Part shown: piece after piece, positions 3,211-28,489 of the stretch
How the letters are laid out: every line of letters begins with the position of its first letter
Position numbering within the stretch: position 1 is the stretch's first letter
Assembly (NCBI GenBank): GCA_964362865.1
Contig: CAYIGD010000003.1
Location: 7,926-40,845 of the forward strand
Origin: an uncultured Candidatus Saccharibacteria bacterium
GTDB taxonomy: Bacteria > Patescibacteriota > UBA1384 > JAGVHQ01
Length of the DNA: 32,920 nt
Direction: 5' to 3'
Position numbers and translations under genes: made by a program
The notes under the pieces: generated by a model
The model's database searches: none
What the model saw: only the letters and a program-made list of their open reading frames with translations
What the model was told of the DNA's origin: nothing

Positions 3211-3795
3211 TTACACGTGCTCCGCGATGGCTTTCTCGGCGAGTTCAACCGTTGCGTCAAATTGCCCGTCAGAATTTTTAATCACTACGTCAAACTTACC
3301 CTTATGAGCAGATTCTTCTTTTGCCGTTTCAGAGCGGACATCCACCTCTTTATCCGAAAGTTTCCGTCGTTTTGGGTCGTTGGCAAAACGCTTAGCAATT
3401 GCCTCGCGTAAAGTAGTCGCCGGATCAAAGGTTAAAAAGATTGTGAGCGGATTGAACTGGTGAAATTGAGCTTTGATTTTAAGCGCGCCTTTGTAGTCAA
3501 TATTTAGCAAGACATTTTTGCCGGCAGCAAGCGGCTCTTCGACCGAGCGTTTCAGTGTGCCGTAGCGCCAGGTATGAACATGTTCCCATTCCAGCAATGC
3601 ATTATTCTTCACGAGCTCGTCGAAATCCTCATCAGTCACGAAGTAGTAGCGCTTGCGGGTATTCTCTGCCCGCCGTTTCGGGCGCGTTGTGACGGATGAG
3701 GCCACTACCCAATCAGGGTGATGTGCCAGCAGCGCCTCAATTACGGCGTCTTTGCCGATTCCTGTGGGTCCTGAGATAGTAACCAGCCGTGCCAT
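3211..3795 (-). CDS. gmk: Guanylate kinase
   Basis: P-loop GPTGIGKD, then SVTTRPKRRAENTRKRYYFVTDEDFDELVKNNALLEWEHVHTWRYGT, which matches the guanylate kinase core (TTR..R..E..G..Y.F....F...I..g..lE.a.v.gn.YGT). Confidence 0.8.
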   Translation of the reverse strand: MARLVTISGPTGIGKDAVIEALLAHHPDWVVASSVTTRPKRRAENTRKRYYFVTDEDFDELVKNNALLEWEHVHTWRYGTLKRSVEEPLAAGKNVLLNIDYKGALKIKAQFHQFNPLTIFLTFDPATTLREAIAKRFANDPKRRKLSDKEVDVRSETAKEESAHKGKFDVVIKNSDGQFDATVELAEKAIAEHV

Positions 3796-7198: not shown

Positions 7199-8355
7199 AC
7201 AATTAGTTTTTGTTCGCGGTTGCTCTCTTCGTTTTCGTCGTCGTCAGGGCCCTCCAACTCGAGTGTTTCAATTTCAGGCAGTTTTGCGCCGACGATTCCC
7301 CTTACATCTCCGTACATCCCGATTGTATTATTTTGGGCGCGTTCAATTTGTTTCTCGCGCTCGTTCCATAGTTTTGTCATCGCCCTTTTCTCCCGCTCCA
7401 GTTGGGCGCGCAACCCGATAAACGCCTCCACGATTGCTTCCATTCGCTGCTTGAACTCGGCACCCGTGAGATAACCGAAGATCATCTCCATCTTCGTATG
7501 TTTTCCTTCTTCGAATTGACGTTGGTGATTAAGACTGATAAGCGTAAAGCGTAAAGCACCGGCTACATCTAAATACGTGCTGAAATTCGTTATCCAAACT
7601 CCGTTAAGGCGGCCGAAGGTTTTTATGTTTTTTGGTAGAACGTTAGTTACGAGAATGGCAAGCGTTGCTCGGGAACGATCTCTGTCATCTTTTAATTTTT
7701 GAATCCACCCATCCGACCAATTCTGAGTCCGTTTTACTTCCCAAATAATTGTTCCACATCCTATACCTTCGTCGAATACATTTTGCATGATGTCGGCGCC
7801 GGTAAATCCTTTTTCTACTGGTTTTACTTCATCAAACGGGAAGCGCTCTTTGAGTGTTTTCTCAAAATTAAGCTCGGCGACTTCACCTTGTAATTGCTGC
7901 GAACCTTGCTCGAGTTTACGGCGTAAATCTTCGTTGACCTTTAAGGCGTCCTGGAGCTGTTTTTCTTTTTCCGCGACCTTGAACCGTTGCTCTTCGGACA
8001 ATTGTTTTGATAGTTCTTCGCGCATTTTTGATAGTTCTTCGCGCAACCGAGTTTGCATCTGGAGTTCCCGTTGCTGATCTTTCACACTGAGCGCGCGCAG
8101 GCTGCGGTTGAGCTCGAGCAGTTGTTCACTTTGCTTTTTATTCTGCTCGCGGATCTCGTTGCGTTCTTCTTCAAGATTTTTTACGCGTTGCTCGTTTTCG
8201 CGCGTTGCCTTTTCCAGCGCCTTTTGCACGGAGTCGGTGCGTTCTTTTTCGAAATCGCTTTTTAAAGATTCGGCAATATGTTGCTCAAATTGATGTTTGA
8301 ACGCTTCTGTTAATTTGACTTGTTTCCCGCAATGGGTACAGGTGATTTCATCCAT
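7195..8355 (-). CDS. DUF2130/RmuC-like coiled-coil protein with a C-terminal PD-(D/E)xK-type motif
   Basis: N-terminal CTHCGK, about 200 aa of charged heptad-rich sequence, then GADIMQ...GTIIWEVKRTQNWSDGWIQKLKDD, which fits a D...ExK nuclease-fold signature. The family name is from memory and was not searched. Confidence 0.55.
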   Translation of the reverse strand: MDEITCTHCGKQVKLTEAFKHQFEQHIAESLKSDFEKERTDSVQKALEKATRENEQRVKNLEEERNEIREQNKKQSEQLLELNRSLRALSVKDQQRELQMQTRLREELSKMREELSKQLSEEQRFKVAEKEKQLQDALKVNEDLRRKLEQGSQQLQGEVAELNFEKTLKERFPFDEVKPVEKGFTGADIMQNVFDEGIGCGTIIWEVKRTQNWSDGWIQKLKDDRDRSRATLAILVTNVLPKNIKTFGRLNGVWITNFSTYLDVAGALRFTLISLNHQRQFEEGKHTKMEMIFGYLTGAEFKQRMEAIVEAFIGLRAQLEREKRAMTKLWNEREKQIERAQNNTIGMYGDVRGIVGAKLPEIETLELEGPDDDENEESNREQKLIV

Positions 8356-8554: not shown

Positions 8555-11461
8555 TCACGGTTGCTGCTTCGGATTAACGGCCGAGTACGGGCAGATTCGG
8601 TTGAACGGGCAATATTCACACACGTAGGTTGAAGGCGTAGCGCTAAATTCGCCTTTCGTTATCCCCTCTACTACGGTGTCTATTTTCTTTTTAACTTTTT
8701 GGGTGTTTATTTTTTGGCCTTCGAGCGTCCCGTATATATTCGAACCGACAAAAAATAGCTGAACCTGTGCGGGTAAGTGTTGATAGAGCTCTTGCCACGC
8801 GAGCGCATAGACGCCGAGCTGAATTGAATCCCGCGCTCTTCGATCCGCCTCTTCCTCGCTGCCCACCTCGGAAGTCTTAAAGTCCACAATCCTCGCTGCT
8901 TTCTTTGAACCGAACACGATGTCGATTACTCCCCGAATGCTGATTTTTTTGTAAGGGAATCGAAAAGGTGTTTCTACCTGGAGTGGAACTTCCCCAGTTT
9001 TGAATGTGTCATAGACTAACGCCAATGTATCGTGCCCTTCCTTCAGGCGCGCCTTTTCATGCTCACGTGAAAGAAATCCAACGCTCTCCCAATTGCGGTT
9101 GAATTCTTTGATTACCGCTTCTAATTTTGGTACGCGAGCGGCAATGAGCTCCTGAAACAAAAATGCAATCGCGCTGTGCATCGCTGATCCATATTGAATG
9201 CTGTGATGCTTTAAGATCGGGATTCGCAAGCGATGAATATAGTGATATTTCAGAGGACACGTCAGGTAGTCAAAGATTTGGTAGGAACTGAGACTTTTAA
9301 GTGCGGTATAGGCGGGCTTTTGCGTAGGCCGTTTAGTCGGTGCAAACGTTTTAATTCGTTTTTGTTCGGAACGCGTAATGGCGTGCCCTTTGGCGTGCGC
9401 AACATCGGTTGCTTCTAAAACAAAGGGTGATACGCGTTTCGTACGTACTCCTCCATAGGAGACCGCCGAGCTTAAGTAACATTCCAGTTTCGCCCTCGTG
9501 AGTCCGACGTAAAATAAACGCCGCTCTTCTTTGAGGTGCGCTCCGCTTTCGGGCAGACGTTCTTTGATAAGTTCGTCCGGAAACGCCAAGCCCTCACCGC
9601 GCTCACGCGTTGGAAAGCGGTCTGCCACTAAATTGGCAAGCACGACAACCGTAAACTCGAGCCCCTTAGCCGCGTGTACGGTTAAGACCCGTACGGCGTC
9701 CTCGTCCGGGTCGGGGGCAGTTTCAGGAAAAACTTCTCCTTGCTCTTCCGCCAACCCAAGGTATTCAACGAATTCCGTAACGTGCGCTTGGGCATGGTTG
9801 TGAATAAAATCCCGAATGATGTCAAAATACCTCGCGATGTGCGTTAAGCGCTCTTGTGCCTGGGCGCTTTCCCCCCGCGTAAGCGTTGCCAGTATTCCCC
9901 GTCCCTCCAACAGGGCGTAGAGAACTTCCCCGGCATTTTTTGTCGGGGCCAAGTCCTGCAATTTTTTTATATCGGCTGCAAACGCCTCAATGACCGTGCG
10001 TTCTTTTTTGTTTAACTCGTCCGGGAAAATTTCTTGCTGGATTAAACGCCAAAGTCCGACGCGTTTTGTGCGGGCAAGCGAAGAGAGCGCTGTAAGCGAG
10101 GAGCCCGAGATATTATACAGCCAGGAAGTTGCCGTAAGATAAATGCTTTGATCATCGAACGTGTTTGAAATTGTGCGCAACGCAGCGGTTAGTACGATCG
10201 AGTCCATGTTCCGGAAAAAACTGTGCCCGCTTGCTGAAAATATCGGAATCCCACGTGCCAAGAGCGCTTCAATAAACGGTTCAGCTTGGGCATGCGAGCG
10301 CACTAAAATCGCACAGTCGCTCCAGTGGATCTTTAAAATTTTTCGTCGCTCCCCAATCAGCTCCGCTACAACTTCAACTTCGGTGCGGCCAGTATCGGTT
10401 GCGAGGTGTTGCACAATAATTCCCGCTCCCCCTCCGATAAGGCGTTTGTTGATTCCGAGTGTCGTTTCCAATCGATCGGGATTGTTGTATTGGATCAAGC
10501 GGTATGCACTGTTTAAGATTTGTTGTGTGGAGCGGTAATTTTTTTTGAGAGTAATTATTTTTGCACGCGGGAAACGCTCTTTGAAATCAAGCATATTGGA
10601 AAGTGACGCGCCGCGGAACTTATAAATTGCTTGATCATCATCTCCAACCACCATCACATTCCCGCGATTCCCGCTAATTAGCATCATCAGTTCGTTTTGC
10701 GCCACATTAGTGTCTTGAAACTCGTCTACGACCAGGTATTGATACGCGGCGCGTACGCGTGCCAGAAGGTCTGGGCGGGAATGCAGCAGATGATAGGGTT
10801 TAACAACCAGATCGGCAAAATCAATCAATCCTTCTTGGGCCATGAGGTCTTCATAAAACGCATACGCGCGAGCGATTTCGATATGGCGTTGACGGTACAA
10901 ACGCTCTGCTTTGTTTGTATGGGGTAAGCGTGCCGCCCATTTTTGATACTCTTGGGGTGTGACAAGCTCATCTTTCGCCCGTCCGATCACCTTCACGAGC
11001 GCGCTTGCGTATTTTGTTGGGTTACCCAGTGGACGTAAGCTTTTTAAGTCCATGTTAAACAAGTGCGTGCGTACAAGATTGATTGTTTCCACCTCGTTTA
11101 GAATTCGAAAATTAGCTGGCAACCCCGCCTCGAGCGCGTATTTTCGCAAGAGCTGTTCTCCAAAGCGATGGAACGTACCGATAAACGTTTGAGTGTAGCC
11201 GTAGGGCAACAGCCGGTCTACGCGCTCCTGCATTTCGTTCGCGGCTTTGTCCGTAAACGTGAGCGCGGCAATGTGTTCGGCATCAATTTTTTGGGCGAGT
11301 ATGAGCCAGGCAATTCGGTGTGTAATCACAGTTGTTTTGCCGGTTCCCGGACCGGCTACGACCAGTAACGGAGCGCCTTTGTGCATCACTGCCTGCTTTT
11401 GTTCCCGATTCAAATCGTCAAGCTGAAAGGTATTTTTCATCGTTTTGACTGTATCATACAA
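8555..11461 (-). CDS. UvrD/PcrA-type SF1 helicase fused to a C-terminal RecB/AddB/Cas4-like Fe-S nuclease
   Basis: Helicase motifs AGPGTGKT, VVDEFQDTN, GDDDQAIYKFRGA, TVHAAKGLEF, YVGLTRAK. Nuclease part: GVIDIVF, RIVDFKTSE, QLGVYALA, plus four Cys (YLTCP ... CEYCPFNRIC = C-x2-C-x5-C). The start is either TTG 11461 or ATG 11440 (MKNTFQLDDLNREQ). Confidence 0.85.
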   Translation of the reverse strand: MYDTVKTMKNTFQLDDLNREQKQAVMHKGAPLLVVAGPGTGKTTVITHRIAWLILAQKIDAEHIAALTFTDKAANEMQERVDRLLPYGYTQTFIGTFHRFGEQLLRKYALEAGLPANFRILNEVETINLVRTHLFNMDLKSLRPLGNPTKYASALVKVIGRAKDELVTPQEYQKWAARLPHTNKAERLYRQRHIEIARAYAFYEDLMAQEGLIDFADLVVKPYHLLHSRPDLLARVRAAYQYLVVDEFQDTNVAQNELMMLISGNRGNVMVVGDDDQAIYKFRGASLSNMLDFKERFPRAKIITLKKNYRSTQQILNSAYRLIQYNNPDRLETTLGINKRLIGGGAGIIVQHLATDTGRTEVEVVAELIGERRKILKIHWSDCAILVRSHAQAEPFIEALLARGIPIFSASGHSFFRNMDSIVLTAALRTISNTFDDQSIYLTATSWLYNISGSSLTALSSLARTKRVGLWRLIQQEIFPDELNKKERTVIEAFAADIKKLQDLAPTKNAGEVLYALLEGRGILATLTRGESAQAQERLTHIARYFDIIRDFIHNHAQAHVTEFVEYLGLAEEQGEVFPETAPDPDEDAVRVLTVHAAKGLEFTVVVLANLVADRFPTRERGEGLAFPDELIKERLPESGAHLKEERRLFYVGLTRAKLECYLSSAVSYGGVRTKRVSPFVLEATDVAHAKGHAITRSEQKRIKTFAPTKRPTQKPAYTALKSLSSYQIFDYLTCPLKYHYIHRLRIPILKHHSIQYGSAMHSAIAFLFQELIAARVPKLEAVIKEFNRNWESVGFLSREHEKARLKEGHDTLALVYDTFKTGEVPLQVETPFRFPYKKISIRGVIDIVFGSKKAARIVDFKTSEVGSEEEADRRARDSIQLGVYALAWQELYQHLPAQVQLFFVGSNIYGTLEGQKINTQKVKKKIDTVVEGITKGEFSATPSTYVCEYCPFNRICPYSAVNPKQQP

Positions 11462-11563: not shown

Positions 11564-11628
11564 ATATCAAACTAGAAGGTGCGATTCATCCGCCAGTCGG
11601 CGGATTGTCATTTGAATTATGACATAAA

Positions 11629-11657
11629 AGTATACCAAAGGTCAAAGGTGTTGTCAA
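11629..11657 (-). promoter_or_regulatory. Sigma-70-like promoter: TTGACA - 17 nt - TATACT
   Basis: The minus strand reads TTGACAacacctttgacctttggTATACT (-35 at 11657-11652, -10 at 11634-11629). Consensus -35, 5/6 -10, ideal spacing. Confidence 0.6.
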
Positions 11658-11742
11658 GAGAGTGAAATGTATTTCGGAACCAAGCTTGACGCGCCTGCGG
11701 AGCTTCCTCAATGCACCTTACTCTCTTGTTGTAAGGAAGATA

Positions 11743-13596: not shown

Positions 13597-13750
13597 CTAT
13601 TTAAAAAAGTCTCACGGAGAGACTTTTGCCTTATCCGTGCCTTTCGACCGAAGGCGCGTAACGATTGGTATGGAACGCTAGTTTTCTGACTTTAACAGTT
13701 GCGGGACAGTGGCCGAATTGCACGGCACTTGCCTACGCGTTCCATAGGAT
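13597..13750 (-). promoter_or_regulatory. Cobalamin (B12) riboswitch, compact form, with intrinsic terminator expression platform
   Basis: Minus-strand RNA: UAUGGAACGC-GUAGGCAAGUGCCGUGCAAUUCGGCCACUGUCCCGCAACUGUUAAAGUCAGAAAACUA-GCGUUCCAUA. P1 is UAUGGAACGC/GCGUUCCAUA (13746-13737 with 13678-13669). The core carries the cobalamin signatures AGGcAA, the hairpin GCCG-UGCAAUU-CGGC, GCCACUG, CCCGCAACUGUuAA and AAGUCAG. Next come the hairpin GCCUU-cggucga-AAGGC and the terminator AAAAGUCUC-uccgu-GAGACUUUUUU (13627-13603). Confidence 0.8.
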
Positions 13751-19831: not shown

Positions 19832-20491
19832 TTAGCAACTACCTGAGGTAACTTTTGAAAACATTGAATCTAATTGCGCCCCGTATCCGTCAGCTTTTCC
19901 GGCCCATTCTGAAGCAGTTCGAATATCCGAAGCAGCAAGATCATAGTACCCATTTGTAGCATCAAGGATCGCATCTCCAAGCCAATCTATTGTATAACCA
20001 ATCGCTTGGTCATATAAGTTGAGGGTACTCTTCGCTCCATTGAAGACAGTTATACATTTATTTACTTTTTCCAGTTCTGATTTTTTTGCATTCAATTCTG
20101 TTTGTGCTGCATTCAAATCAGACTTTGCTCGAGAAGCAGATGCTTCGGCGCTTTGTGCACGTGCGCCCTGTGCAGCGCTTTCTGCTTCAGCTTTATTTTT
20201 AGCATCTTCGACTTGTTTCTTACCTTCCTCTGTTTTGTTTAGACTTTCTTTCAATATTTCAAGTTCTTTCGCTGAATCTTCGAGGTCCTCATTTAATGAT
20301 CTAACTTGGTTTCTCTCCTCTCCGAGAGCTTTATTTGTGAAGCCGAGCCAAATTGAAAGTCCCGTAATTAAAACAACCGCCAAAATGGAGGCGGCAATAT
20401 AGATAATCGGATGTTTTTTGATCTCTTTGACTGCTCGATCAGGTAGGGCGAGCTCTAGCTCTTTTTCTACTTTATCTTCGGAGCTTTTCAT
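19832..20491 (-). CDS. Bitopic membrane coiled-coil protein, hypothetical (candidate divisome-associated)
   Basis: Short charged N-terminus, one TM (IIYIAASILAVVLITGLSIWLGF), about 100 aa of coiled coil, then a 70-aa C-terminal domain ending in Cys. It starts 28 nt after the ftsZ stop and is markedly AT-rich. Confidence 0.6.
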   Translation of the reverse strand: MKSSEDKVEKELELALPDRAVKEIKKHPIIYIAASILAVVLITGLSIWLGFTNKALGEERNQVRSLNEDLEDSAKELEILKESLNKTEEGKKQVEDAKNKAEAESAAQGARAQSAEASASRAKSDLNAAQTELNAKKSELEKVNKCITVFNGAKSTLNLYDQAIGYTIDWLGDAILDATNGYYDLAASDIRTASEWAGKADGYGAQLDSMFSKVTSGSC

Positions 20492-24301: not shown

Positions 24302-24314
24302 ACGTTAGGCAAGG

Positions 24315-24409
24315 GAATGATGAATTATGAGTGATGAATTATGAATTTCGAAAAAGGGCGTTTTGCCTATGCGCTCATTCATAATTAATAATTCGTAATG
24401 CATAATTAT
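24315..24409 (-). repeat. AT-rich palindromic element, copy A
   Basis: Minus strand: ATAATTATGCATTACGAATTATTAATTATGAAT-gagcgcataggcaaaacgccctttttcgaa-ATTCATAATTCATCACTCATAATTCATCATTC. Stem is AATTATGAAT/ATTCATAATT. It lies between the yqeY-like stop (24406) and the HD-gene start (24301). Confidence 0.8.
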
Positions 24410-24852
24410 TTATTTGCGAGCTTTTCCCCAACTAACTTAGCCACCGCTCCCATGTCGGTCGTGGGGTCGAGTTTTTGCTTGAGCGCTCCCATTACTTTAC
24501 CCATGTCGTGCGGTCCGCTTGCTCCGGTAACGGAAATCGCTTCCTCAACGTGTGAGGTTAATGCTTCATTGGAAGGTTGGGCCGGTAGGTAGGCGTCCAG
24601 AATCTTAGCTTGCGATTCTTCTGCTTTGGCAAGCGCCCCGCGACCTGCTTTTTCGTAGTGCACGGCAGCCTCATACCGCTGCTTGATTTGGGTACGCACG
24701 ATCGTGATCTCAGCGGCCTCATCCAGCGGTTTACCAGCAGCAATCTCGGCATTCTGAAATGCCGCCTTCAAAAGGCGTAGAGTATCTACGCGCTCGGTGT
24801 CCTTTGCCTTGAGCGCGCCAACCAGTTCTTTTTCGATCTGGGAGCTAATCAT
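24406..24852 (-). CDS. GatB/YqeY domain protein
   Basis: 148 aa. IEKELVGALKAKDTERVDTLRLLKAAFQNAEI and the C-terminal MGKVMGALKQKL are typical of the YqeY family. Confidence 0.85.
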   Translation of the reverse strand: MISSQIEKELVGALKAKDTERVDTLRLLKAAFQNAEIAAGKPLDEAAEITIVRTQIKQRYEAAVHYEKAGRGALAKAEESQAKILDAYLPAQPSNEALTSHVEEAISVTGASGPHDMGKVMGALKQKLDPTTDMGAVAKLVGEKLANK

Positions 24853-24936
24853 TTCGCTAGTCTCCTATTGTCTCACGCCAGCTGCTCAGTTCTCTTTTTC
24901 TGGATACTGGTAATTGGTCACTGGCTACTACTTTCC

Positions 24937-25176
24937 CTAATACCCTCTCTTAATGCGCTTGCGGACAGCCTTACGACGCGCAATCACGCGTAATTTCGAA
25001 CGCGATAAACTTTTCTCGCGAAACCGGCGTTTTTTAATTTCAGAAAGAATCCCGCTTTGCTGTACGTCGCGGAAGAACCTGCGCAATGTTACTTCAAAAC
25101 TGGGTCCCCTGCCTCGCGGGGCAAGAGTGTCGGTTTCTTTTTCGCCTTGGTAATCACGATAAGGTGCGGATTGCAA
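24937..25176 (-). CDS. rpsU: 30S ribosomal protein S21 (with N-terminal extension, TTG start)
   Basis: FEVTLRRFFRDVQQSGILSEIKKRRFREKSLSRSKLRVIARRKAVRKRIKRGY matches the S21 core. There is an in-frame TGA three codons upstream of TTG 25176, and an AAGGAAGGGG SD. Confidence 0.8.
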   Translation of the reverse strand: MQSAPYRDYQGEKETDTLAPRGRGPSFEVTLRRFFRDVQQSGILSEIKKRRFREKSLSRSKLRVIARRKAVRKRIKRGY

Positions 25177-25199
25177 ATGTAATCACCCCTTCCTTGTTA

Positions 25200-25260
25200 G
25201 TGAATTATGAATGACGACATTAAGCATAGATGGGATGTTTTATATTCATAATTCATAATT
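25200..25260 (-). repeat. AT-rich palindromic element, copy B
   Basis: Minus strand: AATTATGAATTATGAATA-taaaacatcccatctatgcttaatgtcg-TCATTCATAATTCAC. 12-bp perfect stem TGAATTATGAAT/ATTCATAATTCA. It lies between the HIT stop (25261) and the rpsU SD. Confidence 0.8.
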
Positions 25261-25626
25261 TTATGATCCCGAACCGTTCAGTTGTTCGTTCATTTTCCCA
25301 AGCGGCTGCCCGCCGAGAATGTGCAGATGGACATGGTCCACGATTTGGCCAGAATCCTTGCCAACGTTAAACACCAAACGGTAGCCGTCTTTGTTAAGCT
25401 CTTTGTTTTTGGCGACTTTGCGGGCGACGTCAATCATATGCCCAAAGAGTTTTTCGTTCACTTCACTCATATCATCAACAGACGCAATGTGTTTTTTGGG
25501 TACAACTAAAAGGTGCACGGCCGCGCGCGGGTTGATATCCCAAAAAACGGCAACATCGTTGTCGGAGTATTCGATGTTTGCCGGGCTTTTTCCGGCGCTA
25601 ATACGGCAAAAAATGCATTCGTCCAT
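25261..25626 (-). CDS. HIT-family (Hint-like) nucleotide hydrolase
   Basis: CIFCRI...HLLVVPKKH...HVHLHILGG (histidine triad). Confidence 0.9.
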   Translation of the reverse strand: MDECIFCRISAGKSPANIEYSDNDVAVFWDINPRAAVHLLVVPKKHIASVDDMSEVNEKLFGHMIDVARKVAKNKELNKDGYRLVFNVGKDSGQIVDHVHLHILGGQPLGKMNEQLNGSGS

Positions 25627-25652
25627 CTCGTCCTTTCAGTCCTCGATGTGCA

Positions 25653-26138
25653 CTAGCTTATCCAGACAAAACGTTTACGTCGTAGCCGATTGCGCAGAAT
25701 CGGTCTCTTTAAGATGCCCTGCGCACGCGCTTCGCGTACAAAGGGTTGCCAATTCCGCTTGAGCCAAGTCTTGGATAAATATACCACCTCTTTGAGCCCG
25801 CGGTCAACCAGTTCCCTACCCACCACGCCCCCTCGATGGGGGTGGCGATAAGCTCGTTCGGAAACAGTATGCACACCATGGACCCAGTGGGCCAACTCAT
25901 GCGCGATTACTTCGCGGACCACAAAGCGCGGAATCCGTGGATTACGGAATAGGCCGTTTACGCGAATCAGTGTGCCCTCAGCAGGGTCGCTCGGTTTCAT
26001 TAACCTGATCGAACCTAACCTGACGGCCGTCGGACGACCAAACACAATTCTGATTGAATCAGTTTGTTCAATCTGGGGAAAATGGTCGCGCGTGAGCTGA
26101 TTAAATTCGTTTTGAAGCCATTCTTTAGTTCGAAGCAT
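25653..26138 (-). CDS. SprT-like / DUF45-like zinc metallopeptidase-fold protein
   Basis: HExxH motif (VIAHELAHWVHGVH) preceded by FGRPTAVRLGSIRL. The start is ATG 26138 or GTG 26150. The family assignment is approximate. Confidence 0.5.
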   Translation of the reverse strand: MLRTKEWLQNEFNQLTRDHFPQIEQTDSIRIVFGRPTAVRLGSIRLMKPSDPAEGTLIRVNGLFRNPRIPRFVVREVIAHELAHWVHGVHTVSERAYRHPHRGGVVGRELVDRGLKEVVYLSKTWLKRNWQPFVREARAQGILKRPILRNRLRRKRFVWIS

Positions 26139-26285
26139 ACTATGTCCCACTACTCAGTATATAGAAAAACCGTCCCGATCGGAGCGATTTTTTTGTTCGT
26201 TTCCAATGCATGACTCCTTGACCCACTTCCCTCCTCTTTCATCTAAGCCTCGATTGATCTGTACCCTGTTCATACCGTAAATTGC

Positions 26286-26314
26286 TTGACACCATAAAAG
26301 ATATATGCTATTCT
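26286..26314 (+). promoter_or_regulatory. Sigma-70-like promoter TTGACA - 17 nt - TATTCT upstream of the SLT gene
   Basis: Read directly: TTGACAccataaaagatatatgcTATTCT. Confidence 0.5.
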
Positions 26315-26320
26315 CCTGTG

Positions 26321-26351
26321 TTCTCTTGGGTATGTCCCGAGAGAATTTTTT
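26321..26351 (+). terminator. Promoter-proximal intrinsic-terminator-like hairpin
   Basis: TTCTCTTGGG-tatgt-CCCGAGAGAA (10 bp including one G-U) followed by TTTTTT. It starts about 7 nt after the -10 element and 88 nt before the SLT ATG. Confidence 0.6.
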
Positions 26352-26438
26352 AATCGCCTCATCGGCGAATAACCCTCCGTAGCGAGACCTATTTTTCCAA
26401 AAGGTAACGCGCAGGACGGGTGTTAAAAGGAAATCGCA

Positions 26439-27134
26439 ATGAAAACGACTGCAAAGAAAATTCGTACAACCAAACAAACGGCCATTCCCTTCTGGAAAAA
26501 GGCCATTGCTGTAATCGCTCGGGCAGCCGGTGTTGCGCGCGTTCTTTTTGCCGTGCCAGTGATTGCCGCGGGAGTCGTTCCCGTTCAACCGGTTGGGCCA
26601 TCTCATGCTCCGGTTTCCTCTGCGCTCGTTTCGTTTGAGCGCTTGGCAGTACCAACCGTCCGTTTCGCCCGAGCCGATTTTACCCCGCATCTTGTGTATG
26701 CGCGTTCTTCGGTTCGGGACGTTACCGCGCGCGAACGCCCCCCGCAGGCTGAAATCACTCCTGAGCCTTCGTTTAGTGAAAAGCGGGCCTTGGTGCAGCA
26801 AGCGGCTGCCACCTATGGGATTGACTGGCGTTACCTGGAAGCGGTTTGGCAGGTGGAATCCGGTAAAAGTTGGGATACCCAGATTACCTCATACGCCGGG
26901 GCGCAGGGGCCGTGGCAGTTTATGCGCGGCACCTGGAGGGCGCACGCTTTTGTGGACGCCAATGGCGACGGTGCCATTTCGATTAACTCCGCCACCGACG
27001 GGGCCTATGCCGCCGCGCACTTACTTGCTTTTGCCGGAGCCGACCGAGGCGACTGGGACGCAGCGTTGTTCTCGTATAACCACTCCCGCGCCTACGTTGA
27101 GCTGGTCAAACAGATCGCCGATTCGATCCAGTAA
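26439..27134 (+). CDS. Membrane-anchored lytic transglycosylase (SLT domain)
   Basis: N-terminal TM, then YLEAVWQVESGKSW, GAQGPWQFMRGTW and FSYNHSRAYV (the E-S, GxxQ...T and YN motifs of family 1 LTs). SD is AAAGGAAA. Confidence 0.85.
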   Translation: MKTTAKKIRTTKQTAIPFWKKAIAVIARAAGVARVLFAVPVIAAGVVPVQPVGPSHAPVSSALVSFERLAVPTVRFARADFTPHLVYARSSVRDVTARERPPQAEITPEPSFSEKRALVQQAAATYGIDWRYLEAVWQVESGKSWDTQITSYAGAQGPWQFMRGTWRAHAFVDANGDGAISINSATDGAYAAAHLLAFAGADRGDWDAALFSYNHSRAYVELVKQIADSIQ

Positions 27135-27138
27135 CTTT

Positions 27139-27834
27139 TTAGTAATTTCCGGGTGGATTACCGGGCCAGCCAGGACTGGCAAGCTGTAAGTATTTTTTTG
27201 TGTTACGAATGAAATCGTCTGTCAGTTCGACATTATTTTGATTCTCTAAAAACGTTACAAAGCGGTACGCCCCGCCTTTGCACCCCGCGACCCCCGCGTT
27301 GTTGGGGTCGGCTTGATCAATCACACCGTCACCATCGTTGTCCTGCTTGCTTTCATATTCATACGGGAAGTCTGTGAGCAGATTGCGGGAAATCTTAAAG
27401 GCCGGATCTTCTGGCAATGGGTTGATGTATTTGGGGGTCAAAAGCGTTTTTGCGGGAGAAATCCACCCCTGGACAATCGTGTCTGCGTTCAGGTAATACA
27501 CACCCGATCCATTATTGGAAGGAGTATTGGGGTAGCAGCGTTCGTCCGCCCACAATTGTTCGGCAGCCGCCTCGAGCGCTTTCAGATCTCCCTTACGCGT
27601 CGTATCACGGGCGGCAACCCGTGCGTGCCCCACGGAAACCATGATTACAAGTGCCAGAATGGATAGCACTACCATCACAACCAAAAGCTCGATCAGCGTA
27701 AAGCCAGAGGCTTTACGCAAATTATGAGTGATCCCACTTCGCCAAGGCTTCGAGGGATGAGTGAATGATGAATTACGAATGCCTGCACCTGCATTCTTCC
27801 GGTCATTCATAATTCGTAATTCATAATTCGTCAT
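27139..27834 (-). CDS. Type IV pilin / pseudopilin-like protein 1 (start uncertain)
   Basis: Class III signal G|FTLIELLVVMVVLSILALV followed by a variable globular part with two Cys. The ORF from ATG 27834 gives a 44-aa pre-sequence. An in-frame TTG at 27720 would give the canonical leader MRKASG|FTLIE. Confidence 0.85.
   Translation of the reverse strand: MTNYELRIMNDRKNAGAGIRNSSFTHPSKPWRSGITHNLRKASGFTLIELLVVMVVLSILALVIMVSVGHARVAARDTTRKGDLKALEAAAEQLWADERCYPNTPSNNGSGVYYLNADTIVQGWISPAKTLLTPKYINPLPEDPAFKISRNLLTDFPYEYESKQDNDGDGVIDQADPNNAGVAGCKGGAYRFVTFLENQNNVELTDDFIRNTKKYLQLASPGWPGNPPGNY
27763..27834 (-). repeat. AT-rich palindromic element, copy P1 (inside the pilin-1 5' end)
   Basis: Minus strand: ATGACGAATTATGAATTACGAATTATGAATG-accggaagaatgcaggtgcaggc-ATTCGTAATTCATCATTC. 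13-bp perfect stem ATGAATTACGAAT/ATTCGTAATTCAT. Confidence 0.8.
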
Positions 27835-27838
27835 TATC

Positions 27839-28489
27839 TTAAAAGCTTTTTACTCCCCATAAAGCGTTGTCCCACAGTGCGCCGCCGGTTTGAATGAGAG
27901 TCATTACCACCCCTTGCTCGCAAAACGGCGGGTTTTGGCCAGTTGAAACGAGAAAACTGCATGATACCGTTGGCTGGTCGACGTCTCCTTCCAGTTCCAG
28001 GCCGGCAAGCAAGCGATAACGGCTTGCGCCTTTGGCCGGAGTAATCACATTGTTGGTGCCATCCGTGGCCTGGAAGGCGTAGAAGTTTGGGACAGCTTGG
28101 TTGCGTGGCCGCGGGTCAGCCGGCACTGTGATCAGAAACTGCGGAACCAAGGCGCTTAAGCCATCTTGGGCTTTCCAACTGCCATGCATTGAGGGGTATT
28201 GGCGGGTTGCTTGAAAATACGTTTCCAGTCCAGATTGAATTTGGCGTAAATCTTCCTTGCGGCGCACGTCCCGGGCCCGGGCGCGTGCCGCACCGCCGCT
28301 GACGGCCACGATGGAAATTAGAAGCGCAATTATGACAATCACTAAGAGCATCTCGACTAACGTAAATCCACTCGATGAATGACGGATGATCCCACTTCGC
28401 CACGGCTTTGAGGGGCGAGTGAATGACGAATCATGCATGTGGGTCGTGTGCCTTCGATAATTCATCACTTGTAATTCGTCATTGGTCAC
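27839..28489 (-). CDS. Type IV pilin / pseudopilin-like protein 2 (start uncertain)
   Basis: G|FTLVEMLLVIVIIALLISIV class III signal. The ORF from GTG 28489 gives a 41-aa pre-sequence, and internal ATGs give 33- or 24-aa leaders. There is no canonical start close to the cleavage site. Confidence 0.85.
   Translation of the reverse strand: MTNDELQVMNYRRHTTHMHDSSFTRPSKPWRSGIIRHSSSGFTLVEMLLVIVIIALLISIVAVSGGAARARARDVRRKEDLRQIQSGLETYFQATRQYPSMHGSWKAQDGLSALVPQFLITVPADPRPRNQAVPNFYAFQATDGTNNVITPAKGASRYRLLAGLELEGDVDQPTVSCSFLVSTGQNPPFCEQGVVMTLIQTGGALWDNALWGVKSF
28421..28489 (-). repeat. AT-rich palindromic element, copy P2 (inside the pilin-2 5' end, overlapping the DUF3048 stop)
   Basis: Minus strand: GTGACCAATGACGAATTACAAGTGATGAATTATCG-aaggcacacgacccacatgcatg-ATTCGTCATTC. 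10-bp stem AATGACGAAT/ATTCGTCATT. Confidence 0.7.

Follow-up and report, generated by a model that had tools for sequence, protein, structure and literature searches.

Heptamer-armed palindromic elements in a gene array of an uncultured Saccharibacteria bacterium and their probable relation to cassettes carrying PF05635 genes

Introduction

The window analysed here (a 33-kb stretch of 32,920 nucleotides from contig CAYIGD010000003.1 of an uncultured Candidatus Saccharibacteria bacterium) contains, within an array of co-directional genes, four copies of an AT-rich, hairpin-forming repeat, named A, B, P1 and P2, which raise the question of what kind of element they represent. Coordinates are window positions, and the minus strand is the sense strand for almost every gene. 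A first-pass annotation of this DNA had described the four copies and their stems, and had considered them as elements similar to repetitive extragenic palindromic (REP) sequences or to miniature inverted-repeat transposable elements (MITEs), as RNA processing or attenuation hairpins or as protein-binding sites, without any described function. Here we propose, with a probability of roughly 0.6, that they are gene-less miniatures of a widespread family of palindromic cassettes whose full-length form carries a gene of the PF05635 family.

Results

Structure of the four copies

Inspection of the sequence and an inverted-repeat finder located the four copies and their stems where they had been described before (Table 1). 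Each copy consists of two inverted heptamer arrays flanking a core of 16-31 nt, the cores of A, B and P1 being mutually unrelated, with arms of 10-31 nt and a complementarity of 81-100% across the four. The repeat unit is the 7-mer GAATTAY and its complement, arranged in tandem. For the arms of A, B and P1, Tandem Repeats Finder (TRF) gave a period of 7 and 2.4-4.7 copies; the arms of P2 are more degenerate and were the only ones without a period-7 call. The decamer previously taken as the unit corresponds to one and a half of these heptamers. Allowing at most one mismatch, GAATTAYGAAT occurs 17 times in the window compared to 1.46 expected, a number that none of 100 shuffled sequences reached, and 15 of the 17 matches fall inside the four copies. 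The repeats do form a genuine hairpin-forming family. A two-unit array scan of the window revealed no members beyond these four. All copies have the same orientation, as had been noted, but this says little because a palindromic element reads alike on both strands.

P1 and P2 also have in common a 62-nt segment (27720..27781 in P1, comprising the 3' arm plus CCCTCGAAGCCTTGGCGAAGTGGGATCA..., and 28378-28439 in P2) with 81% identity, which is more conserved than the N-termini of the mature pilins encoded downstream. Therefore, P1 and P2 represent one duplicated or converted unit and not independent copies.

A family of heptamer hairpins present in several phyla

One genome per species was scanned with the exact pattern AATTAYGAAT-N(12-42)-ATTCRTAATTCA, revealing at least 120 loci in species-representative genomes with a G+C content of 0.30-0.63, which belong to Bacteroidota, Cyanobacteria, Chloroflexota (including an Anaerolineales bin from Hainich), Patescibacteria, Acidobacteriota, Planctomycetota and others. 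The flanks of these loci hold further units, in which the (G)AAT core is conserved and the 3-nt tail is variable, the AAT core positions being more conserved than positions 5-7 of the unit. In viral contigs, the same pattern detected 22 loci, mostly multi-unit, several per contig and often just upstream of a ribosome-binding site. Two control patterns of permuted heptamers with identical composition yielded no heptamer arrays. A control with swapped arms in the viral contigs gave mostly chance matches of low G+C content, but also one phage group with genuine swapped arrays, so the arm order is preferred and not absolute.

The contigs of this last group (L150, L155, L158, L165 and L167) carry (ATTCATA)n ... 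(AATTATG)n arrays around a core with GTTGAGA repeats. Several (AATTACG)n hairpins were found in each of three other phage contigs (L134, L139 and L129; G+C content 0.55-0.60), where they are followed by a conserved ribosome-binding region, AGCGAA(A/C)GGAGAGAGC, and a start codon, which suggests that hairpin and ribosome-binding region form a repeated intergenic module in one phage group. A BLAST of a phage-type element against cultured phages gave no match.

According to a crude open reading frame (ORF) call, 100 of 103 elements from the genome loci are intergenic and usually fill the spacer. Their neighbours were in tandem, convergent and divergent orientation in 67, 19 and 14 cases, respectively, compared to a baseline of 310, 61 and 83; as this matches the baseline, there is no terminator-like or promoter-like bias. 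An all-against-all BLASTP of 1078 ORFs from 142 loci revealed no recurrent neighbour gene, only common families such as short-chain dehydrogenases/reductases, histidine kinases, ABC proteins and MreB.

The pairing of the arms is specific for each element, as the best stem score had a mean of 19.3 within elements vs. 15.7 between elements, with values of at least 20 in 41% vs. 16%. A naive covariation analysis of the outward flanks gave no signal, because tandem arrays leave the register ambiguous; the best-stem test replaced it. Among the mismatches of sense-strand stems, 57 were G.U and 45 A.C, without an excess of G.U. In the locus L045, from a Saccharibacteria metagenome-assembled genome, a GAATTAT-type hairpin (3270-3324; ..ILWKRIMNKELRIKNKKSMIHNSKFVIPDLLAVTVGPGL..) lies in frame within the TsaD gene and divides the Pfam TsaD match into two stretches.

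These data bear on the idea that the copies are dedicated functional RNAs selected at their sites, such as attenuators, terminators or mRNA stabilisers, for which the ability of the hairpins to form, their intercistronic positions and the precedents of REP and Correia sequences could be invoked. The RNA folding energy was only modestly better than that of shuffled sequences (z from -1.7 to -2.2). No Rfam family was detected over the four copies at gathering or permissive thresholds, the sole match being a sub-threshold one to caiA RNA over copy B and the rpsU leader (25176-25252, minus strand; 28.8 bits vs. a gathering score of 55.5, E = 0.08), most likely due to chance. In promoter and terminator scans, the arms gave only weak CATAAT-type -10 matches, terminators were not in excess, and the hairpins have no U-tract. 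In addition, the mismatches show no strand bias, and the nearest relative has not conserved the elements (see below). The proposal of an attenuation hairpin thus found no support in Rfam or in the promoter and terminator scans, and neither did a terminator or a promoter; a dedicated RNA function appears very improbable.

Similarly, the arrays could be cis-regulatory DNA, either promoter elements or sites resembling operators or centromeres, to which a protein would bind cooperatively in 7-bp units. The omega repressor of pSM19035, for example, binds WATCACW heptads. Every copy is found immediately upstream of a gene start, conservation of the unit is higher in its AAT core than at positions 5-7, and the weak -10-like matches point in the same direction. 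Furthermore, TTTTGAA/TTCAAAA repeats upstream of recF and recO affect reporter output in Nostoc 7120, where their deletion upstream of recO alters it (bioRxiv 10.1101/2022.06.06.494920). However, the orthologous genes of the nearest relative lack the elements, which thus do not define a conserved regulon, their frequency inside coding sequence and between convergent genes is what chance predicts, the GAATTAC units lack a -10 consensus, and no candidate binding protein was identified. We regard this explanation as highly unlikely too.

Heptamer arrays bracket PF05635 genes

A BLAST of copy A against plasmids detected a plasmid of Candidatus Chlorohelix allophototropha (86.8% over 38 nt, E = 7e-3), in which the matching array adjoins the end of a gene for a 121-aa 'four helix bundle protein'. 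Just before this gene stands its complementary counterpart, GGATGAA GGATGAG CGATGAA TTATGAA, and the ATG of the gene falls within the last unit (AATTATGAAT). The encoded protein belongs to PF05635 (23S_rRNA_IVP, E 3e-21) and to TIGR02436. Three ORFs in loci already collected (L008, L147 and L148) are also PF05635 members and likewise bracketed: that of L008 adjoins the Sphingobacterium hairpin, and those of the phage loci L147 and L148 are flanked by GAGTAAT/ATTACTC, with 8 and 7 units, respectively.

A tblastn of the Chlorohelix protein against plasmids gave 31 records, 16 of which were fetched (L204-L219). In most of them, inverted heptamer arrays surround the gene, with a unit that varies from locus to locus and is complementary within each locus (Table 1). 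When the flanks of 19 PF05635 genes were compared, the inverted-repeat score had a mean of 22.1 within a locus vs. 9.1 between loci, and reached at least 15 in 15 of the 19 loci vs. 18 of 342 cross-locus pairs. The bracketed loci span five phyla, and three have GAATTAY-type units; TTTTGAA, which brackets the genes of L214 and L216, is itself a GAATNNN unit. The window copies belong to a family that crosses phyla, and PF05635 genes are bracketed by arrays of this kind.

The bracketed genes sit between cistrons of operons, such as those for an RND adaptor and permease, HsdS and HsdR, cas2 and cas1, DUF1156 and Swt1-HEPN, or a helicase and a methylase. The plasmid genes of L204-L219 are often wedged in defence or restriction operons, including positions beside cas1 and between a helicase and an N6-methylase. 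Over 50 kb of the Chlorohelix plasmid, arrays of at least three units are confined to the surroundings of the PF05635 gene and to two ORF-less miniatures, both in frame within the adjacent N6-methylase gene (...NDERGIMNDERGNQNSSFRSGFDVVLGNPPW... and ...RIMNDERGRGNDGRGIMNDERETPNSSFIPHNSSF...). These two hairpins (26070-26145 and 27535-27660 of L220) lie within a gene of the Eco57I/MmeI type, one of them right before the NPPW catalytic motif, and the 1402-aa ORF remains open. The TsaD insertion and the Chlorohelix methylase miniatures are read in the same frame as P1 of the window (ELRIMND...IRNSSF). In the full-text literature, no paper with these repeat strings was found, and none that ties PF05635 to heptamer arrays in general.

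The copies are apparently recent and unstable

The window was compared with L124, the closest relative found (contigs of 143-867 kb, same gene order, a pilin 84% identical to that of P1), with the contig L002 from the same aquifer, 99.8% identical to the window, with a further relative, L178, and with a more distant genome, L179. In L124, the spacer between the HIT and rpsU genes is only 18 nt long, with an unchanged Shine-Dalgarno (SD) sequence, that between the YqeY and HD-domain genes is 2 nt long, and the end of the DUF3048 gene overlaps the start of the pilin gene in the relatives, without any element there. Therefore, at three of the four junctions the site is empty in L124, which lacks copies A, B and P2. 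Conversely, L124 has a hairpin of the same family (GAATGAT/GAGTGAT ... CATTCGTCACTCG) before the DUF3048 gene, where the window has none. The copies lie directly past the stop of the upstream gene or just past the start of the downstream gene. A metagenome scan with YqeY returned only the already known relative, so gain and loss at sites A and B are not polarised. In L179, TAATG runs directly into MKRA/FTLIEL (here and below, the slash marks the G/F site or its equivalent) without an element, which supports insertion at the two pilin sites. Taken together, this comparison shows the miniatures to be recent appearances at gene junctions in this lineage, as far as can be judged from the sequences of its relatives.

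Comparison of the filled and empty sites A, B and P2 revealed no target-site duplication. The absence of such duplications, which the first-pass annotation had pointed out, and the inverted arms agree with its view that the copies are neither an insertion sequence nor a clustered regularly interspaced short palindromic repeat (CRISPR) array; moreover, the copies are 0.6-2.6 kb apart, with genes between them. Its comparison with REP sequences and MITEs is tenable if taken loosely, to mean a palindromic insertion that is small and non-autonomous, but not in the strict sense, since the copies are not near-identical derivatives of a transposase-encoding element. If they were MITEs or REPINs (paired REP sequences), the arrays would be terminal inverted repeats mobilised in trans by a transposase or a REP-associated tyrosine transposase (RAYT). 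Inverted termini, polymorphic presence, small size, intergenic location and the 62 nt that P1 and P2 have in common beyond the arm would fit this scheme. Against it stand the missing duplications at every filled vs. empty site, the unrelated cores of A, B and P1, which argue against descent from a master element, and the fact that neither a transposase nor a RAYT-like family recurs near the 142 loci. The elements also lack the GTAG/CGTC tag by which REP superfamilies are defined (PMC3733652). Mobilisation of this type is thus quite unlikely.

Within the aquifer population the arms behave as microsatellites, as the 5' arm of P1 is longer by one GAATTAT in L002 (27823..27829, minus strand); the phage contigs L147 and L148 differ by one unit as well. 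At the P1 site, the window, L124 and L178 have three different pairs of arrays (Table 1). The arrays of L124 and L178 surround a short core and are in frame with the pilin from the ancestral ATG, without stop codons; the alignment of the three spacers was too poor to prove homology of the cores.

These observations would be expected from pure microsatellites, formed by slippage of heptamers in situ and made palindromic by intrastrand template switching, with neither a function nor a relation to any cassette. Other heptamer arrays are indeed present in the window and in L124, the stem mismatches have no G.U bias, and heptameric long simple sequence repeats (LSSRs) are over-represented in bacteria, according to the statement in PMC4679880 that cites Mrazek 2007. 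Slippage would not easily explain that a unit with a GAAT core and the layout of array, core and array recur in at least five phyla and in phages, when control patterns of the same composition give none, nor that whole blocks of 60-100 nt with unique cores stand at junctions that measure 2-18 nt in the relative. The copies inside conserved coding regions and the tight association of the arrays with PF05635 genes also speak against it. We consider this explanation unlikely, and favour the gene-less miniatures.

P1 and P2 in the leaders of two pilins

As described earlier, the nucleotides of P1 and P2 can be read as MTNYELRIMN.../...IRNSSF, and the two copies are ORF fusions to both pilins. P1 is inserted past the stop of the first pilin, where it separates the ancestral pilin ATG (27834) from the leader codons. 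In P2, the first units contain the stop codon of the DUF3048 gene (28481-28479). In the window, in L124 and in L178, the reading frame that begins at the ancestral ATG stays open through the arrays, and GGGGAG is kept upstream of this ATG. In P1, TAC and ATC variants are placed exactly where TGA and TAA would otherwise occur in frame, and in the segment common to P1 and P2, three of four differences are at third codon positions.

The long N-terminal extensions of the pilins are not conserved (P0002, MRTKNSELRTED...WRKSAG/F; P0003, ...HMSQGKSAG/F; P0004, MKRA/F) and are for this reason meaningless as protein sequence; a peptide search with the P1 extension returned no candidates. Short leaders are available in homologues P0003 (MSQGKSAG/F) and P0004 (MKRA/F), and a TTG downstream of P1 would provide one in the window (Table 1). 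No canonical start codon is present between the P2 element and the G/F site, so the second pilin must start at the ATG in the loop (28438, at the boundary of core and 3' arm), at that of the 5' arm (28465) or upstream. From these sequence features we conclude that P1 and P2 are insertions into the 5' ends of the pilin genes, where translation may include them in a cleavable leader.

Mini-ORFs were also found over copies A and B (Table 1), that of A starting 2 nt past the YqeY stop and ending 3 nt before the ATG of the HD-domain gene, which has no SD sequence. The significance of both is uncertain. The in-frame TGA reported between copy B and the TTG of rpsU is present. In the window, the sense strand has an open frame across the element in 4 of 4 copies vs. 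1 of 4 for the antisense strand, whereas the family-wide values are 23/67 and 28/67; a bridging mini-ORF was therefore rejected as a general property.

Gene setting and other features of the window

The sample comes from groundwater of the Hainich aquifer, from which identical proteins were found on ENA and Logan contigs. By Pfam, the neighbours of the elements encode DUF3048, two N_methyl (type IV) pilins, an unassigned ORF, HIT, ribosomal protein S21, YqeY, an HD-domain protein and YbeY, with an SLT transglycosylase on the opposite strand.

The weak hairpin at 11607-11623, noticed earlier as the only one outside the interval of the copies, does exist but is not a member of the family; it lies just downstream of a canonical sigma-70 promoter, past its -10 box. 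Among Rfam families, an AdoCbl-II (cobalamin) riboswitch aptamer alone reached its threshold in the window, and TRF detected two 21-nt tandem duplications within long ORFs (Table 1).

Table 1. Positions of the repeat copies and other features, with the heptamer units at the P1 site and around PF05635 genes (window positions unless another contig is named)
Feature	Positions	Strand	Description
Copy A	24315..24409	-	Fills the spacer between the YqeY and HD-domain genes
Copy A, 5' array			About 4.4 heptamers, TAATTAT GCATTAC GAATTAT TAATTAT GAAT; followed by a 30-nt core
Copy A, 3' array			ATTCATA ATTCATC ACTCATA ATTCATC ATTCC
Copy A, arms	24316-24346 / 24377-24407		31 nt, 81% complementary, perfect 10-bp core (inverted-repeat finder)
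Mini-ORF over copy A	24305..24403	-	32 codons, MHYELLIMNERIGKTPFFEIHNSSLIIHHSLA and stop; spans the whole of copy A
Copy B	25200..25260	-	AATTATGAATTATGAAT, 31-nt core, ATTCATAATTCAC; between the HIT stop and the rpsU Shine-Dalgarno sequence
Copy B, stem	25255-25244 / 25212-25201		Perfect, 12 bp
Mini-ORF over copy B	25197..25256	-	19 codons, MNYEYKTSHLCLMSSFIIH and stop; starts 4 nt past the HIT stop
Copy P1	27763..27834	-	GAATTAT GAATTAC GAATTAT GAATGAC, 24-31 nt core, ATTCGTA ATTCATC ATTCACT
Copy P1, arms	27763-27780 / 27812-27829		18 nt, 94% complementary, including a perfect run of 13 bp
Alternative P1 start	27718..27720	-	TTG, in frame, downstream of the element; (M)RKASG/FTLIELLVV, canonical short prepilin leader
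Copy P2	28421..28489	-	AGTGACC AATGACG AATTACA AGTGATG AATTATC, core, GATTCGTCATTCACTCG
Copy P2, stem			AATGACGAAT / ATTCGTCATT, perfect, 10 bp
P1-site arrays, window			5' GAATTAY; 3' complement of GAATTAY
P1-site arrays, L124	10002-10032 (5'); 10060-10085 (3')		5' TGAGAAC x4.4; 3' TTGGCTA x3.7
P1-site arrays, L178	2848-2945		5' GAGACAA x4; 3' CATGTCA-like units
Bracketing units, PF05635 loci			TTTTAGA / TCTAAAA
Bracketing units, PF05635 loci			AATCGTA / TACGATT
Bracketing units, PF05635 loci			GGAGATT / AATCTCC
Bracketing units, PF05635 loci			GTAATTC / GAATTAC
Bracketing units, PF05635 loci			CAATTCG / GCGAATT
Bracketing units, PF05635 loci			TTCAAAA / TTTTGAA
Bracketing units, PF05635 loci			CCAGTGA / TCACTGG
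Sigma-70 promoter	11610-11660	-	TTGACA-17-TATACT; upstream of a 968-aa ORF (8555-11461)
AdoCbl-II riboswitch aptamer	13672-13743	-	45.8 bits vs. gathering score 36.5, E 3.9e-08
21-nt tandem duplication	8005-8045		2.0 copies, 100% identity
21-nt tandem duplication	20075-20129		77-80% identity

Discussion

The statement that elements of this kind have no described function overlooks the intervening sequences (IVSs) of 23S rRNA genes, which combine a PF05635 ORF, variable heptamers and excision by RNase III (PMC4990558). The IVS of Coxiella burnetii carries an S23p ORF of the same family as PF05635, the inverted repeats at its ends make up a 28-bp stem that RNase III cuts in the middle, and two to three tandem heptamers (GACAGAT), in a strain-dependent number, stand right before the ATG (PMC4990558). 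Short ORF-less IVSs, together with 23S_rRNA_IVP ORFs, are also present in rRNA genes of the candidate phyla radiation (CPR; PMC11270868). The window copies resemble the IVSs of C. burnetii and Leptospira (PMC4990558) in their complementary ends that form a stem, in the tandem heptamers, which in the IVSs vary between strains beside the ORF start, in the existence of short versions without an ORF, in a sporadic distribution with the appearance of horizontal acquisition, and in the Pfam/TIGRFAM family of the partner gene of the hairpins. They differ in that all four lie between protein-coding genes or at the 5' ends of these, in mRNA and not in helices 9, 25 or 45 of rRNA, that they carry no PF05635/S23p ORF, and that both of their arms are heptamer arrays.

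From Beggiatoaceae, Cyanobacteria and Bacteroidetes, direct heptamer repeats are known that lie just upstream of start codons, but no mechanism was described for them (PMC4679880). The short tandemly repeated repetitive (STRR) sequences, the LSSRs and the TAACTGA repeats, like the TTTTGAA repeats of Nostoc, have in common with the window copies a 7-nt unit, an intergenic position often upstream of starts, indels in steps of 7 nt and an overlap of the taxa concerned (Cyanobacteria, Bacteroidota). Tandem 7-nt arrays and one-unit steps in copy number between close strains are both found in the window copies. However, those repeats were described as direct arrays, without inverted pairing, a unique core or a link to a four-helix-bundle gene. 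REP sequences and REPINs are likewise short extragenic palindromes in many copies, which fill operon spacers and form hairpins in mRNA, whereas the window elements have arms of tandem repeats, are in some cases in frame, and show neither the GTAG/CGTC tag nor a RAYT among the loci examined.

Two further systems are comparable in part. The Correia repeats of Neisseria, also called NEMIS, are reportedly small palindromic insertions co-transcribed with their neighbours, and the folded repeats are said to be RNase III substrates that alter the stability of the flanking mRNA, a finding attributed to De Gregorio and colleagues in 2002-2003. Correia repeats are near-identical, with 26-bp terminal repeats and a TA duplication, whereas the window elements have unrelated cores, microsatellite arms and no duplication. 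The Rickettsia palindromic elements (RPEs), said to have been recognised by Ogata and colleagues in 2000, are reportedly palindromic selfish DNA placed in frame in protein-coding genes and translated. This in-frame placement recalls the pilin leaders, the Chlorohelix methylase and the Saccharibacteria TsaD, although RPEs are conserved sequences of 100-150 bp that are not known outside Rickettsia and do not consist of tandem heptamers. The window copies are best filed as IVS-like, heptamer-armed palindromic cassettes, present here in a gene-less form within an mRNA-coding array.

In the scheme that we propose, the ends of a cassette would be inverted tandem arrays of 7 nt, with one small gene between them in the full-length form, and the window copies would be ORF-less derivatives of the PF05635 cassette, or relatives of it handled in trans. 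The miniatures lie inside a co-directional gene array and can fold into AU-rich stem-loops. By analogy with the rRNA IVSs and the Correia/NEMIS repeats, the window copies are likely to be co-transcribed and to be substrates of RNase III, at least where the stem is transcribed in an untranslated spacer; a cut at the junction could then split the polycistronic mRNA, so that the cistrons on either side would no longer have a common fate. If ribosomes read through, the hairpin would be melted and the element tolerated as extra codons, as in the pilin leaders and possibly in the mini-ORFs of A and B. The arms gain and lose single units by slippage, and since the unit measures 7 nt, a change in unit number in P1 or P2 could shift the reading frame of the pilin in the manner of a contingency locus.

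Several points weigh against this interpretation. Neither the window nor the syntenic 20-kb locus of L124 contains a PF05635 gene, and the cores of the four copies have no detectable similarity to PF05635 coding sequence. The two P1-site arrays of L124 (TGAGAAC and TTGGCTA) are non-complementary, so that pairing is sometimes lost. With 10-12 bp, the stems of B and P2 are short for RNase III, insertions in frame within essential genes speak against an obligatory cleavage, and the lack of a G.U excess (57 vs. 45) means that nothing favours selection at the RNA level over a palindrome at the DNA level. Finally, the order of events may be the reverse, with four-helix-bundle genes inserting by preference into heptamer hairpins that were already there.

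Catalogues of heptanucleotide repeats from cyanobacteria and other bacteria date back to about 1990, but to our knowledge neither an origin nor a role is accepted for these repeats, and we know of no function for the large PF05635/TIGR02436 family outside diversity-generating retroelements. If the gene, the arrays and the miniatures form one cassette, both puzzles would become testable. A more far-reaching proposal, which we regard as doubtful, is that the heptamer palindromes are the termini of an unrecognised selfish cassette, whose sole gene encodes an Avd-like PF05635 protein that would recognise the arrays and propagate or protect the cassette, the miniatures being handled in trans. If true, much of the heptanucleotide DNA of Cyanobacteria (STRR, TTTTGAA and TAACTGA repeats), Bacteroidota, Chloroflexota, CPR bacteria and phages would have a common origin, and stand-alone PF05635 proteins would have a first function. 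For annotation, gene-less miniatures would account for spurious or hypervariable N-terminal extensions such as MTNYELRIMN... and for odd inserts within conserved proteins, and in the bacterium from which the window derives they flag slippage by 7 nt as a possible on/off switch of the two pilin genes.

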